The notes under the pieces were generated by a model. The model saw only the letters and a list, made by a program, of their open reading frames with translations, searched no databases and had not been told where the DNA came from. A stretch of DNA of 64,000 bases from Escherichia coli (GTDB lineage: Bacteria; Pseudomonadota; Gammaproteobacteria; Enterobacterales; Enterobacteriaceae), in NCBI RefSeq assembly GCF_003018255.1, contig NZ_CP027440.1; one strand, 5' to 3'. A program made the position numbers and the translations under genes. This document shows, piece after piece, positions 33,375 to 46,663 of the stretch (positions within the stretch are counted from its first letter, which is position 1; the number at the start of each line of letters is the position of its first letter).

Positions 33375-33691
33375 ATCCAGCTTGCAATGAAAATAACACC
33401 CGCCTGGTATGTGCGCGTTTTCTTATTCCACAAACTGCAAGGAGGTAAATCATGACAAATCCTTTATCAATGACTCTTTGCAGACCTTTCCAGGATTAAT
33501 TCTTTTTTTCTTGCCCTGGATTCGTCTGCCATTTCCTGATTTTTATATTTATATACTCTAAATAATTCGAGTTGCAGGAAGGCGACAAGCGAGTGAATCC
33601 CCAGGAGCTTACTAAAGTAAGTGACTGGGGTGAACGAACGCGGTCGCAGTACATGCAACTTGAAGTATGACGAGTATAAATGGAATGATAC

Positions 33692-40771: not shown

Positions 40772-42025
40772 ATGCTGGAACAAATGGGCATTGCCGCAAA
40801 GCAAGCCTCGTATAAATTAGCGCAACTCTCCAGCCGCGAAAAAAATCGTGTGCTGGAAAAAATCGCCGATGAACTGGAAGCACAAAGCGAAATCATCCTC
40901 AACGCTAACGCCCAGGATGTTGCTGACGCGCGTGCCAATGGCCTTAGCGAAGCGATGCTTGACCGTCTGGCACTGACGCCCGCACGGCTGAAAGGCATCG
41001 CCGACGATGTGCGTCAGGTGTGTAATCTCGCCGATCCGGTGGGGCAGGTAATCGATGGCGGCGTACTGGACAGTGGTCTGCGTCTGGAGCGCCGTCGCGT
41101 GCCGCTGGGGGTGATTGGCGTGATTTATGAAGCGCGCCCGAACGTGACGGTAGATGTCGCTTCGCTGTGCCTGAAAACAGGTAACGCGGTGATCCTGCGC
41201 GGCGGCAAAGAAACGTGTCGCACTAACGCTGCAACGGTGGCGGTGATTCAGGACGCCCTGAAATCCTGCAGCTTACCGGCGGGTGCCGTGCAGGCGATTG
41301 ATAATCCTGACCGCGCGCTGGTCAGTGAAATGCTGCGTATGGATAAATACATCGACATGCTGATCCCGCGCGGTGGCGCTGGCCTGCATAAACTGTGCCG
41401 CGAACAGTCGACGATCCCGGTGATCACAGGTGGTATAGGCGTATGCCATATTTACGTTGATGAAAGTGCAGAGATCGCTGAAGCCCTGAAAGTGATCGTC
41501 AACGCGAAAACTCAGCGACCGAGCACATGTAATACGGTTGAAACGTTGCTGGTGAATAAAAACATCGCCGATAGTTTCCTGCCCGCATTAAGCAAACAAA
41601 TGGCGGAAAGTGGCGTGACGTTACACGCTGATGCAGGTGCACTGGCGCAGTTGCAGACAGGCCCCGCGAAGGTGGTTGCTGTTAAAACCGAAGAGTATGA
41701 CGATGAGTTTCTGTCATTAGATTTGAACGTCAAAATCGTCAGCGATCTTGACGATGCCATCGCCCATATTCGTGAACACGGCACGCAACACTCCGATGCG
41801 ATCCTGACCCGCGATATGCGCAACGCCCAGCGTTTTGTTAACGAAGTAGATTCCTCCGCTGTTTACGTTAACGCCTCTACGCGTTTTACCGACGGCGGCC
41901 AGTTTGGACTGGGTGCGGAAGTGGCGGTAAGCACACAAAAACTCCACTCGCGTGGCCCAATGGGGCTGGAAGCACTGACCACTTACAAGTGGATCGGCAT
42001 TGGTGATTACACCATTCGTGCGTAA
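40772..42025 (+). CDS. proA: gamma-glutamyl phosphate reductase
   Basis: 417 aa immediately downstream of proB. Confidence 0.95.
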
Positions 42026-42139
42026 ATAAAACCGGGTGATGCAAAAGTAGCCATTTGATTCACAAGGCCATTGACGCATCGCCCGGTTAGTTTTAACCTT
42101 GTCCACCGTGATTCACGTTCGTGAACATGTCCTTTCAGG

Positions 42140-42215
42140 GCCGATATAGCTCAGTTGGTAGAGCAGCGCATTCGTAATGCGAAGGTCGGAGGTTCGACTC
42201 CTCTTATCGGCACCA
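42140..42215 (+). tRNA. thrW: tRNA-Thr (anticodon CGU)
   Basis: 76-nt sequence GCCGATATAGCTCAGTTGGTAGAGCAGCGCATTCGTAATGCG…CACCA with cloverleaf features, anticodon loop TTCGTAA, 3' CCA. Confidence 0.9.
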
Positions 42216-42835
42216 TTTAAATCAATAAGTTACACATCACTAATACCTTCCTTATTTTTTATTGGGACAGATTTGGGACCGATGGGTTCAGGATCGAATC
42301 TATTTACCGTGCGTGTTCGGTAAGGTGATTAGGTGCGAGGTGAGCATATCGACGAACCATTTCGAGAGTTTCCCATCCGCTCATTTTTAAGTGCAAGCAG
42401 GGAAACACCGGACCAAACCAATCAGCTGTTCGAAAATGGCAAGCGGATTAATATGCCATGGCGGCTTTGAGCCGCACGCATGGGGTGTGGCAAGCCTGAT
42501 GGATGTTACTGTGCTTGTGGTGGCGTCTTTGCTGGTCTGGTTGTTGGTTAATCGCGAAAATCATTATGCCAGAGGAATACCACAGGACGTTCAGGTTTTG
42601 CATAAAAAAGCCCACCATTAAGGTGGGCAAAAGGAATGATTTATATTCTCTGAGAGAAACATTACATTTCTCCTTGTCACTTCTAACATGAAAATATGGA
42701 GAAATAATGGAGCTTATATTAATTGGCGATTAGGTAACCATGTGGTTATACAAAACAATACAGTTCTTTACATTTGCCTTGTTTTATGAATACTCCTAAA
42801 GAGGTGTATAACATAATGGTACAAGCAGGGTAGAT

Positions 42836-43450
42836 ATGAATATATTTGAACAAACTCCACCAAACCGCAGACGTTATGGTCTTGCTGCATTCATTGGGCT
42901 GATTGCTGGCGTTGTTTCCGCATTTGTTAAGTGGGGGGCAGAAGTTCCATTGCCACCACGTAGTCCGGTTGATATGTTTAATGCAGCGTGTGGTCCGGAA
43001 TCATTAATCAGGGCTGCAGGCCAAATTGATTGCTCCCGTAACTTTCTCAATCCTCCGTACATTTTTCTTCGGGATTGGTTGGGACTGACAGATCCAAATT
43101 CGGCTGTTTATACCTTCGCCGGGCATGTCTTTAACTGGGTTGGTGTAACGCACATAATCTTTTCGATAGTTTTTGCCGTTGGTTACTGTGTGGTCGCCGA
43201 AGTATTTCCGAAAATTAAACTTTGGCAGGGCTTACTGGCAGGTGCTTTAGCGCAACTTTTTGTTCATATGATTTCATTCCCTCTCATGGGACTTACGCCA
43301 CCTCTCTTTGATCTTCCGTGGTATGAGAATGTCTCTGAAATTTTTGGACATTTAGTCTGGTTCTGGTCTATTGAAATTATTCGCAGAGATTTACGAAACA
43401 GAATTACCCATGAGCCAGATCCTGAGATCCCTTTAGGCTCAAATAGATAA
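42836..43450 (+). CDS. yagU: inner membrane protein (DUF1440 family)
   Basis: 204 aa with several hydrophobic segments; position matches K-12 yagU. Confidence 0.75.
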
Positions 43451-43698
43451 TGCTTTGAATGATAAAAATGGCGCAAATATAGCGCCATTTTTATAGGTTA
43501 AAAACGTTGCTTTTCATATTCTGATGCGGACAGTCAGTGATCATATCGCGCTACTTCAGGATGATGTAGATCCGGAGAACGCTACAGAAGAAGAGGCATT
43601 GTTGCTGGAAAATGGAAGAAGTTTCAGGTTTTGTTGTCCCTGAAAAACGAAGCCCCGCTATTACAGCTGGCGGGGCAATGCAATTAATTATTGTATAT

Positions 43699-44028
43699 TT
43701 ATAACGGTGTTAGCCCGTATTTAGCTCTTGCACGATTGCAAGCCTCATTGACTTCTCCGTTCTCACCAGACATGGCGAATTCTCTGCATGTGGACGATCG
43801 ATTTTCATATATCGTGCAGCAGGCATTTTTGCCCGGTGTTCCTGCAAGGGCAATACATCGGGGATTTTTCTGATTAGTACCGCTCATGCATCGGTGAAAA
43901 GGGGATATTTGTTCAGTGAGCCTGGCGGGAATGGTACCGCCAGCATCGTCAGCTTCGGCCCAGTAAAAAGAGACGCGGAAAAATGCACAACAGGCACCAC
44001 ACGTCATGCATGGATTCAGATTGCTCAT
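43699..44028 (-). CDS. ykgJ: Cys-rich ferredoxin-like protein
   Basis: 109 aa with CxxCxxCC and further Cys motifs. Confidence 0.75.
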
Positions 44029-44340
44029 AATTCACCAGTACAGCTATAAATCGTAAAGAGAACTGCGGTACGTCGTATGCAGGGATGTATCGCGGTTGGC
44101 TGGTGTACTTTCGATAGTGTGAGTATTGAATGATTTCCAGCCGTTACCGATTTTACGTCCTAATTAGTGAAGAAACCACTCGTTAGCAGGCCGCCTGGTA
44201 CCTTTCCGTGTCTCCTGAACACTGTGGTGTGCATATGAGAAAGCTCATCGTTACAGGTGACATTGACGATCGCTTCCACATCATTTAAACGATTTTTGAG
44301 TCTCTGAGGTGGAATTCTTCCCTCGTCCGATGGATAAGTC

Positions 44341-45051
44341 TTAGTCCGCCGAAGGGGGCTTAGCCGGACAGGAATCGCTAATCTTAATGAATTTGTCGTT
44401 ATAGACCAGATAATGATTCCCCGGCTGACGTAACTCAGGCTGATGAACCACGTCTCCCGGACGTAGATACCAGGCATCGCCTTCCTCTTCGGTCGAATCA
44501 CATCCTGGTTTAATCAGTAGCTTAAACCACGTGTTGCCGGTGTTACTTACCGTTCCGGTCACCTGATCGAAGGACCATTTAAACTGAACCTGACGTGGTC
44601 GTACTACCAGAATGGTATCCATCACCACCACCGGCTCCGTGCTGACCTCACCGCCGGTTGGGCTGCGTTTTGTCAGGTTACGAGTGGGGACCTCGCGAAA
44701 TGAGACCCGGTAGTAGCGCTCGCGGTTATCCCGTGGACCATGATAGTAAAATTTAAAATACTCGCTCTCACCAGTCTGCAACGCCAGCTGGCGGGGGGCG
44801 AAAAGTAGTTCACCATCCACCGGTCGGGTGCGCAATTCACTGCTGCCCGGGCTATCAATAGCACTGATGGCAATACGGTATATCCGCGCGCTTTTGTTGT
44901 TATTCACGACACGTTTGCTGACAAAGTCAGTCTCGGACGGCAGTGAAAAAGTCAGATTGCCGACCGAAATCGCCTGTGTCAAAGGTGCCGCCAGCATACA
45001 GACCACTGTCAGCAGGGCCTTAGTTAATGTTACGCCACGTCGCCTGAACAT
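44341..45051 (-). CDS. ecpE: E. coli common pilus chaperone EcpE
   Basis: About 236 aa from internal MFRRRG start with signal peptide; last gene of ecp operon. Confidence 0.75.
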
Positions 45052-46663
45052 GAATCTCTCCTGAAGCGCTGACTTCGCCAAACCAGCCGTTATCATCTAC
45101 CGTACGCAGAGAAATGGCGTTATCCATTGGAATCGAAAATTTGACTGTGGTCTTATCCATCTGCCCCACTTCGCCAGAGATATCAGTCCACGGTGTGGTC
45201 AACCACAGCGCATCGGTCATATCCCGCCAGCTATCATCGCACCCGGCATCGTAGGTTTTTGTAGCTCCGTTGCGGGTAATAAAGGAAAGCGTCGCCGGGA
45301 ACGGTACTTTCGCCTTACCGTCATCGGAGCTGAAGACACAATAGGAGCGCCCGCCAATCACCTGCGCGGGTCCGGTCACCTTGATCAGCACTTCGTCGGC
45401 AGCTGTTTTACCGCTGGTGGTTACGATATAGCCGAAATCGAGTGCCGACTCGCCGCTGCCAACATATCCCTCCCGCGACGGTGTCTGAGTATATTCATCG
45501 GAGATAATACTGATGCTGAAATCACGGGGTTTGATAATCAGCGTGTTGGAGGTAGAAAATTCATACCAGCCAGACTCCGGTGATGTGGTGTTCTGAAAGC
45601 GAAAGTTGAATAGATCTTTGGTGTTGATATCGCTGATCCCGAGGTTCACCATCTGTTTAAAGAAGTTGCTCGAGAAGAAAACATAGATCGAGTCTGCGCT
45701 CTTCATCTCGTTGAAGGTGTAGTAATAGGCAGTATTGCTCACCGGTTTCCATGAACTGCCATTCAGACTGAACTGCATATCGTACGCCCCGACGGCCGAG
45801 GCTAACGACGAGTTGGCGATCGCCGGGAATATATGGATTGAGGTGTTGCTGAGTCCGTTTGTTTGCAGGGTATAGTTAACCATCTTACAACTTAATCCTG
45901 AACGGCTGCCGATGGTTTGCGTCCGGCAGTCGGCGTTCCCTTCGCCCAGAGTCGGTACTCCGTCGCTGTTGATAAATACTTCCGCCAGCGAGTGGGTATT
46001 TATCAACCGCAGATTTGCTGCTTTCGTATGGGTGACGTTGCGAACATACCAGTTGCCGGAGGCCTGATCCTTACAGCGTGCGCCGCTGCTGGCGTCATAG
46101 TTCACAGAGGTCTGGCAGGCATTGATGGTCATTGTAAAGCTGCTGCCGACGGGCATTTGTTGCAGATACTGGTAAAACGCGTCTGACAACATGCCGTGCA
46201 TCCATTTCGCGCCGCCGCTGGTCACCGTCGCGCCATAAAATCCACTGGCGTCGGTGGTTTGCGGCAGGATAAGACTGGTGGTCATATTACACCCTGCGTA
46301 CCAGTTGATGCAGCGCAAGCCAGTTAAAGGAGATGAAACTGGTGAATTTTCCAGCCACATATCAAACTTCCAGTTGGTATAAAGGCCGGTGTTGTAACCG
46401 TTATCAATGTAGCCGAGGCTTTGCTGATAGATGGTTCCTGAACCATTGTATTTTAAACCGGTCCAGCGGTTGGCACCGGTCAGGCGCGGATCCAGCGCCC
46501 CGCCAGGAGTGACGAAAAAGTTGTCGTCTGAGTTGTTTTCGACAAACACAAACTCGCGTGCCGGAGCATCCGCCCAGGTTGTTTTGCTCACTGCCGCTCT
46601 GAGCGCGGTTGCAGGCCAGATTAGCGCAAAGATTATCATCGCTATCAGTAGGTTAACTCTCAT
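45020..46663 (-). CDS. ecpD: E. coli common pilus tip adhesin EcpD
   Basis: 547 aa with signal peptide. Confidence 0.85.

Follow-up and report, generated by a model that had tools for sequence, protein, structure and literature searches.

The 620-bp spacer that separates the threonine tRNA gene thrW from yagU in this Escherichia coli chromosome is very probably the decayed stub of an old prophage, in which a 14-codon open reading frame (ORF) on the minus strand would be a by-product and the hairpin at the end of that ORF an inherited terminator. The locus was analysed within a 64-kb stretch of DNA (hereafter, the window), where thrW (tRNA-Thr(CGT), 42140-42215, plus strand; ARAGORN, and Rfam tRNA at 71 bits) is the sole tRNA gene and the next long ORF after it is yagU (42836-43450, plus strand), whose 204-aa product, an inner-membrane protein, contains the Pfam domain DUF1440 and is identical to RefSeq YagU. 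The spacer spans 42216-42835, in agreement with a preliminary description of this DNA, which had placed yagU about 620 bp after the tRNA gene. On the left, the locus is flanked by phoE, proB and proA, and on the right by ykgJ, ecpE and ecpD.

The thrW gene is a well-documented integration hot spot (PMC7545054). Positions 42100-42900 are 100% identical to the E. coli strain JNE23-011, and positions 42575-42835 are 100% identical to the E. coli type strain ATCC 11775. RefSeq places two features in the spacer of JNE23-011, namely an integrase pseudogene (42230-42421, minus strand) and a “hypothetical protein” (42436-42621, plus strand), and no account of the thrW-yagU spacer was found in the literature on thrW, yagU and sRNA. 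As a prophage scar at a familiar integration hot spot, the locus is ordinary and has been annotated before; nothing in it would surprise a specialist. The features on which the argument rests are the following.

42171-42215, plus strand: attB core for thrW islands and phages, consisting of the 3' 45 nt of thrW.
42230-42421, minus strand: remnant of an integrase pseudogene, comprising the C-terminal ~60 codons of an SfII/SfV/P22-type tyrosine integrase and oriented with the 3' end toward thrW.
42423-42555, plus strand: stub of phrog_1443, a lambdoid/P22-like late-end gene of unknown function, with codons 51-96 of a 97-aa gene.
42604-42628, minus strand: intrinsic-terminator-like hairpin, from a terminator scan and folding.
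42618-42662, minus strand: 14-codon micro-ORF MFLSENINHSFCPP, judged to be a chance ORF.
42654-42675, minus strand: second palindrome (arms GAGAAA/TTTCTC, 42654-42672) with the Shine-Dalgarno (SD)-like AAGGAG (42670-42675), from folds.
42676-42835, plus strand: yagU 5' region, common to K-12-type strains and cdt-I prophages in alignments.
42767-42794, plus strand: candidate yagU promoter, from a promoter scan.
43456-43656, plus strand: tail-fibre-assembly (tfa) remnant, Rfam IS009 (RF02111), 197 bits.

The statement that no integrase or prophage is present here, made in the preliminary description, does not hold, given that an integrase pseudogene begins 15 bp past thrW on the minus strand and is followed by a truncated phage late-gene fragment. 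The segment 42216-42386 matches the 3' end of int from the Shigella phages SfII, SfV, SfI and SfIV and from the Escherichia phage phi458 at 92% nucleotide identity, and P22 int at 76%. A full-length counterpart exists in strain Res13-Lact-PER04-33, where a 372-aa integrase occupies the identical position, with its 3' end toward thrW and phage early genes after it. When this protein is compared with the spacer by tblastn, residues 321-364 align at 86% amino acid identity, and the alignment reveals two in-frame stops, followed by a frameshift ahead of the last eight residues; about 310 N-terminal codons are gone. RefSeq describes the same stub in JNE23-011 as “integrase, frameshifted; internal stop; missing N-terminus”.

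At about 42421/42423, the integrase stub abuts the remnant of phrog_1443. Alignments with the full-length prophage genes, tblastn and the PHROGs collection identify this remnant as the 46 C-terminal codons of a gene of 96-97 aa, from which the first 50 codons are absent. It has suffered a 5-nt deletion and has lost its stop, so that the frame continues up to a TAA in the loop of the hairpin. The RefSeq “hypothetical protein” (WP_000146240.1, ORF 42436-42621) is a chimeric frame that runs over this pseudogene. Together, the 3' stubs of int and phrog_1443, the two ends of the deleted prophage, account for about 330 of the 620 bp of the spacer.

At the protein level, phrog_1443 was found in 70 deposited phage genomes, and in all five contexts examined it comes after tail-fibre or tailspike genes. 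In three annotated phages it stands just after the tail-fibre or tailspike gene, with leftward genes (int, dinI-int or sitDCBA) on its other side. In the P22-like phage Gally, for instance, the order is tailspike, phrog_1443, ~470 bp and then the 3' end of a convergent int, and in the Stx2k phage and Lambda_2E9 leftward genes likewise come after phrog_1443. From these arrangements it follows that the two genes lie at opposite ends of an integrated prophage. The junction between their stubs is identical in all the chromosomal copies examined, including a lineage that has diverged to ~93% identity and is without the 5-nt deletion in the phrog_1443 stub, which argues that the deletion joining the two stubs is old.

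A different reading, in which the spacer is intergenic DNA native to the chromosome, with an unoccupied attB site and no phage-derived sequence, would agree with the lack of an intact integrase, of a second att core and of island genes. Nevertheless, it is refuted by the int and phrog_1443 fragments, which combine significant nucleotide or protein homology with disabling lesions, and its probability is practically nil. The term “unoccupied”, used in the preliminary description, is therefore correct in that there is no intact island or prophage and that the attB core is single and intact, and incorrect in that the spacer is not native intergenic DNA.

In the 64-kb window, the thrW core is present as a single, intact copy. 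A search of the whole window for further copies, allowing up to 3 mismatches, found none, and no shorter repeat turned up in 42100-45200. Given that there is no second core, the window contains no intact island flanked by direct repeats at thrW. This direct-repeat feature marks an excisable element and not a scar, whose attR has been lost. The relation between the scar and the islands can be seen in other strains. In strain AVS0171, an island ends in a copy of the 45-nt thrW core (TTCGTAATGCGAAGG...GGCACCA), which serves as attR and is followed by the same scar and yagU, and in FDAARGOS_1287 (with vat and IS1), 98218 and 2D foreign genes are found directly upstream of the scar, so that in all four strains the islands sit between thrW and the scar. 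In strain IMT16316 the site is unoccupied, as in the window. When a query spanning thrW to the stub junction was used in BLAST, coverage alone did not separate unoccupied from occupied genomes. The thrW site is open for integration, and the scar, which lies outside it, forms a fixed flank.

The comparison with K-12, which had been proposed in order to locate the attachment core, places that core at 42171-42215, where it recurs at the end of CP4-6. As the preliminary description had stated, K-12 carries CP4-6 at this site (262898-297205, ending with the same 45-nt thrW core); the description had missed that yagP-paoDCBA additionally lies between CP4-6 and yagU. About 17 nt past the terminal core of CP4-6, K-12 continues with yagP-paoDCBA, ahead of yagU, and it rejoins the window sequence only at about 42675. 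In K-12-type strains, the segment 42676-42835 is part of the paoA-yagU intergenic region.

The right-hand part of the spacer has relatives in phage DNA as well. Counterparts of the block 42571-42835, with about 80-85% identity, were found in cdt-I converting prophages, namely a locus of strain PEC41 and five IMG/VR contigs. In these prophages phrog_1443 is complete and is followed without a break by the hairpin, the yagU upstream region and a 5' fragment of yagU (~16 codons), after which comes cdtABC. The block running from the hairpin to yagU was seen only in prophage contigs and chromosomes: a blastn search (11-base words) with 42575-42835 gave no match among 50,697 deposited phage genomes, and the only parts of the spacer matching deposited phages are the int stub, at the nucleotide level, and phrog_1443, at the protein level. 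When species-representative genomes were scanned with the conserved yagU-upstream pattern, it was found in E. coli only, in one contig (L022). In this contig the hairpin is adjoined by an insertion-sequence end that looks IS3-family-like, from its resemblance to the IS911 terminal repeat.

Phage associations also extend to yagU itself and to the DNA beyond it. YagU has its own PHROG family (phrog_25162), and homologues with 90% amino acid identity lie between the antiterminator Q and the holin in two Klebsiella prophages, where the yagU upstream regions have no homology to their E. coli counterpart and no hairpin. Beyond yagU, the tfa remnant contains an ORF (43524-43643) assigned to Pfam Caudo_TAP and aligns with tfa remnants that come after phrog_1443 genes in prophages. 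The sRNA EcsR2 has been mapped in the yagU-ykgJ spacer, where this remnant sits (PMC4350180; bioRxiv 10.1101/2021.10.18.464853). In the light of these neighbors, yagU is probably old prophage cargo, with debris of a lambdoid late region on both of its sides.

The most conspicuous element of the right-hand block is the hairpin. The preliminary description had reported a stem GCCCACC/GGTGGGC followed by a T-run, which is correct, with a loop ATTA, which is not, the loop being 5 nt long (TTAAT on the minus strand). The stem, at 42610-42628, has 7 bp, six of them G-C pairs; the minus-strand sequence after the hairpin is TTTTTTAT, with a U6 tract at 42609-42604 and the tail UUUUUUAU. The fold has a predicted energy of -15.2 kcal/mol (z = -3.9). 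Conservation of hairpin and micro-ORF was assessed in nine distinct copies of 42571-42835, which represent about three independent lineages, and this is the number on which the following statistic rests: stems and U-tract contain one variable column in 20, against 89 in 245 in the rest of the block (Fisher p = 0.003). In the loop, three of the five positions vary. Because the stems never vary, they lend no covariation support to the hairpin. With stems invariant, the loop variable, some three lineages and no compensatory change, the pattern suggests that the hairpin is constrained, and a role as a minus-strand intrinsic terminator is credible from the predicted structure.

Other identities for the hairpin were considered and rejected. 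A REP/BIME-type repeat is ruled out, the sequence being unique in the window, and so is a plus-strand terminator of the phrog_1443 gene, there being no U-tract after the hairpin on that strand. An origin as the terminator of the pao operon, left behind by a deletion of paoABCD-yagP, is contradicted by K-12, which has no such hairpin between yagP and attR, and also by the contiguity of hairpin and yagU that is common to the cdt prophages.

The hairpin and the second palindrome next to it might also be read as the remnant of a retroregulator of int similar to tI/sib of lambda, that is, a terminator and an extended hairpin on the int strand, located at the opposite end of the prophage. Both hairpins are indeed on the int strand, they are adjacent, one of them is a terminator, and they lie just past the last late gene, where an att-proximal element of the circular phage lands after integration. 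In lambda, sib is att-proximal. Here, however, no att core is found beside the hairpins, yagU (or, in the prophages, yagU'-cdtABC) intervenes, no deposited phage, lambda included, gives a sequence match, and the hairpin is better placed for the far (late-operon) end of the accessory region than for the location of sib. For these reasons we give this reading only a slim chance and prefer a terminator inherited from the border of the late operon.

The other proposal to be weighed concerns the micro-ORF, which the preliminary description had compared with a leader peptide or small RNA. The coordinates given for it are right: AAGGAG stands at 42675-42670 of the minus strand, 7 nt ahead of an ATG at 42662, from which the frame of the 14-residue peptide runs to a TAA (42620-42618) located in the loop of the hairpin. 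The ORF called mechanically is longer, with 23 codons from an upstream ATG at 42689. An SD at the ideal distance of 7 nt and a stop within a terminator loop are what would be expected from a translated small protein, or from a leader peptide controlling the terminator by attenuation. Conservation, which had been suggested as a check, speaks against both. In five of the nine distinct copies (AVS0171, all the cdt-type copies and L022), AAGGAG is replaced by AAAGAG, even though AVS0171 is 98.9% identical overall; the TAA is lost in three of the nine, all cdt-type, where the frame reads through the terminator; and the changes are mostly nonsynonymous, with three of the 14 residues replaced and one synonymous change. 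Additionally, folding of the minus-strand RNA predicts that the second palindrome pairs most of the SD and leaves the AUG in its loop.

The arrangement is not rare either. When AAGGAG was sought with a spacing of 5-9 nt to an ATG and at least 10 codons, the window yielded eight cases, six of them real genes and the other two micro-ORFs; shuffled sequences gave 1.6 +/- 1.3. Terminator-like sites were counted in the same manner in 42000-43600, with one found and 1.7 expected from shuffles. Neither the micro-ORF frequency nor the terminator-like site count is above chance.

As for attenuation, a leader peptide is rejected because there is no minus-strand gene downstream for it to regulate. Beyond 42604, the minus strand holds only the antisense of the phrog_1443 stub, the dead int stub and the antisense of thrW and proA, and in the prophage context, past the terminator, it holds the antisense of phrog_1443 and of tail-fibre genes. 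The peptide contains no run of regulatory codons, and the fold offers no alternative antiterminator pairing overlapping the terminator, the two hairpins not competing for bases. A translated or regulatory micro-ORF is therefore very improbable, and, judging from sequence comparison, the 14-codon ORF looks like a chance product beside an inherited phage terminator.

A further possibility is that the minus strand encodes an RNA rather than a peptide. In this case, a minus-strand transcript of ~85-200 nt would start in the yagU upstream region and run through the second hairpin, an A/U-rich linker and the terminator to end in U6, and the two-hairpin module (42604-42675, minus strand) would be a phage-derived sRNA gene, carried by cdt-I prophages and, within the scar, by roughly one E. 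coli genome in four. By analogy with EcsR2, which lies across yagU and offers a precedent, such a transcript might act as a regulatory RNA. Its architecture would be suitable, with two stem-loops of invariant stems and variable loops, single-stranded A/U-rich sequence between them and a U6 end. The module folds better than shuffled sequences (z = -3.3 for the window copy, -4.4 for that of the cdt prophages), and the cdt-I prophages have kept the block at the identity given above. In the cdt-prophage copy the second palindrome forms a perfect 12-bp stem, in which AAAGAG is paired with CTCTTT.

Several observations oppose this proposal. On the minus strand there is no sigma-70-like site scoring at least 9/12, and the two weak 8/12 sites are at 42840-42813 and 42722-42693, the -10 element of the second being altered in K-12-type and cdt-type sequences. 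Rfam has no family for the module: a search of the spacer against Rfam 15, with E up to 1, returned sub-threshold hits only, the best being Hrs12 (25.8 bits against a gathering score of 70, E = 0.23), in addition to Hrs1 (20.4 against 56.4 bits). Of 5426 complete E. coli genomes, no more than about 1300 contain the element. Finally, the palindromes are equally conserved at the DNA level whichever strand is considered. As for covariation, the stems of the module are invariant and show no compensatory changes, which speaks neither for nor against its structure. We consider an sRNA gene at this place rather unlikely.

The evidence is best accommodated by a history in which a mosaic temperate phage of P22/SfV/lambdoid type once resided in thrW, with int beside the tRNA gene. 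A deletion with one end within int and the other within phrog_1443, the last gene of the late region, would then have removed nearly all of the prophage and joined the two stubs at the present junction; a single deletion is the simplest course of events. The DNA to the right of the stubs (the two hairpins, the yagU promoter region, yagU and the tfa remnant) would also be of phage descent. Since there is no attR to the right of the scar, a history with one prophage needs a further loss; otherwise, the stubs come from two successive phages, which is possible. The attB core in thrW has stayed intact, so that the site still takes islands, inserted between thrW and the scar.

According to this prophage-scar history, the 14-codon ORF would be a by-product, arising from an AAGGAG that is one base away from the palindrome arm AAAGAG and from a TAA in a terminator loop, the same loop TAA that also serves as the stop of the plus-strand stub ORF. 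From its position and orientation, the hairpin would be an inherited Rho-independent terminator for leftward (int-strand) transcription, which may originally have bounded the late operon against the accessory, att-proximal region. In vivo, it probably still keeps stray minus-strand transcription that originates in the yagU promoter region from extending as antisense into thrW-proBA.

The scar can be placed among known systems at several levels. It shares its att site with the islands and prophages found at thrW in E. coli and Shigella, such as CP4-6, PAI III536 and the vat/tsh islands of ExPEC, the serotype-converting phages SfII/SfV/SfI/SfIV and their SHI-O remnants, and with P22 in Salmonella. 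It also resembles prophages of the SfII/SfV type in the nucleotide identity of the int stub, and its int 3' end points toward the tRNA, as in the Res13 prophage. In contrast with intact thrW elements, the scar keeps only ~60 int codons, carries neither an attR repeat nor any gene of gtr, vat or CP4-6, and cannot excise; it lies outside the att site used by the present-day islands.

EcsR2 shares with the spacer module both the locus and the raw material, a phage late-region remnant flanking yagU, and is derived from a degraded phage tail-fibre gene. It differs in being an experimentally mapped transcript, reported from every one of the 66 E. coli RefSeq genomes of that time (PMC4350180), whereas the predicted module 42604-42675 has no Rfam family and occurs in only about a quarter of E. 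coli genomes.

The hairpin itself resembles the terminators found at the convergent boundaries of lambdoid phages, between the late operon and the leftward accessory or int-side genes, in its G+C-rich 7-bp stem, 5-nt loop and U6 tract, and likewise sits just past the last late gene, in the opposite orientation. Unlike these, the chromosomal hairpin has lost the leftward unit that it would have closed and has only ~200 bp of yagU upstream DNA in front of it. The micro-ORF is similar to the trp, his and thr attenuators in being a short ORF behind an SD which ends at a terminator hairpin, but it lacks the downstream operon, the run of regulatory codons and the antiterminator pairing, and the ORF is not conserved.

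Even with this familiar setting, some consequences follow. WP_000146240.1 is shown to be a chimeric reading frame across a pseudogene, and a neat arrangement of SD, micro-ORF and terminator can arise from a one-base change in a palindrome together with a terminator loop. If the sRNA reading were true, the module would be a second sRNA born of phage debris around yagU, besides EcsR2. The view of yagU as old phage cargo is useful for tracing the history of the thrW hot spot. The main value of the analysis lies in a correction, namely that an apparently empty tRNA integration site may hold the fused ends of a deleted prophage.

Based on its surroundings and on the relatives found in prophages, the yagU gene looks like an old piece of phage cargo. 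In the window, it stands between two phage remnants, one on either side:

42423-42555, stub of the late gene phrog_1443, left flank
42836-43450, yagU
43456-43656, tail-fibre-assembly stub, right flank

The observation also covers L012 3318-3944, L013 3489-4115 and L006 5140-5640. Two Klebsiella prophages carry yagU homologues (with 90% amino-acid identity) between the antiterminator Q and the holin, and the upstream region of the E. coli yagU, together with its first ~16 codons, is retained in cdt-I converting prophages, where it is joined to the cdtABC upstream region.

Upstream of yagU lies a well conserved block (window 42676-42710, CTTCTAACATGAAAATATGGAGAAATAATGGA), in which 7 of the 35 columns are variable in the comparison of nine distinct copies, the K-12-type sequence being left out; this latter sequence also aligns closely to the block. 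An imperfect palindrome (TTCTAACAT-N6-ATGGAGAA) is found inside it, and the block could serve yagU as a regulator binding site. On the other side of the gene, the tail-fibre-assembly remnant (43456-43656) matches the Rfam family IS009 at full length, with 197 bits, and the sRNA EcsR2 was mapped to this same yagU-ykgJ spacer (PMC4350180). A perfect palindrome of 13 bp, at 43462-43494, is likely to be the bidirectional terminator of yagU.

The RefSeq annotation places a “hypothetical protein” (WP_000146240.1, window 42436-42621, plus strand) in the spacer between thrW and yagU. This is a chimeric reading frame, which begins at an out-of-frame start, regains the phrog_1443 frame through a 5-nt deletion, passes the lost stop and ends at a TAA in the terminator loop, and it is probably not a gene. 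In L022 (E. coli SCPM-O-B-8794 contig 7), the phrog_1443 stub is replaced by IS-like sequence reaching the A-tract of the terminator, which is one base shorter in this copy. Approximately 40 bp to the left of the hairpin, this sequence (GGCCAGTTTTTGTTGACC...) resembles a terminal inverted repeat, putatively that of an IS3-family element by its likeness to the IS911 end.

The combination of AAGGAG and an ATG micro-ORF, present in the spacer as a minus-strand ORF of 14 codons, has one sole other occurrence in the window, at 33452 (plus strand, 15 codons).

In the T-stem of thrW itself, positions 42189 and 42203 form a G-C pair in the window, as opposed to T-A in K-12, in strains Res13 and IMT16316 and in the attR copies, a compensatory double difference located inside the att core. 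When the K-12 sequence following the CP4-6 attR (L021 5211-5280) was compared with window 42216-42234, the two were found to agree over ~17-19 nt past the thrW core (ATTTAAATCAATAAGTTAC), a stretch that K-12 also has in the flank of thrW itself, with divergence beyond; therefore, the functional att region may extend past the tRNA gene.
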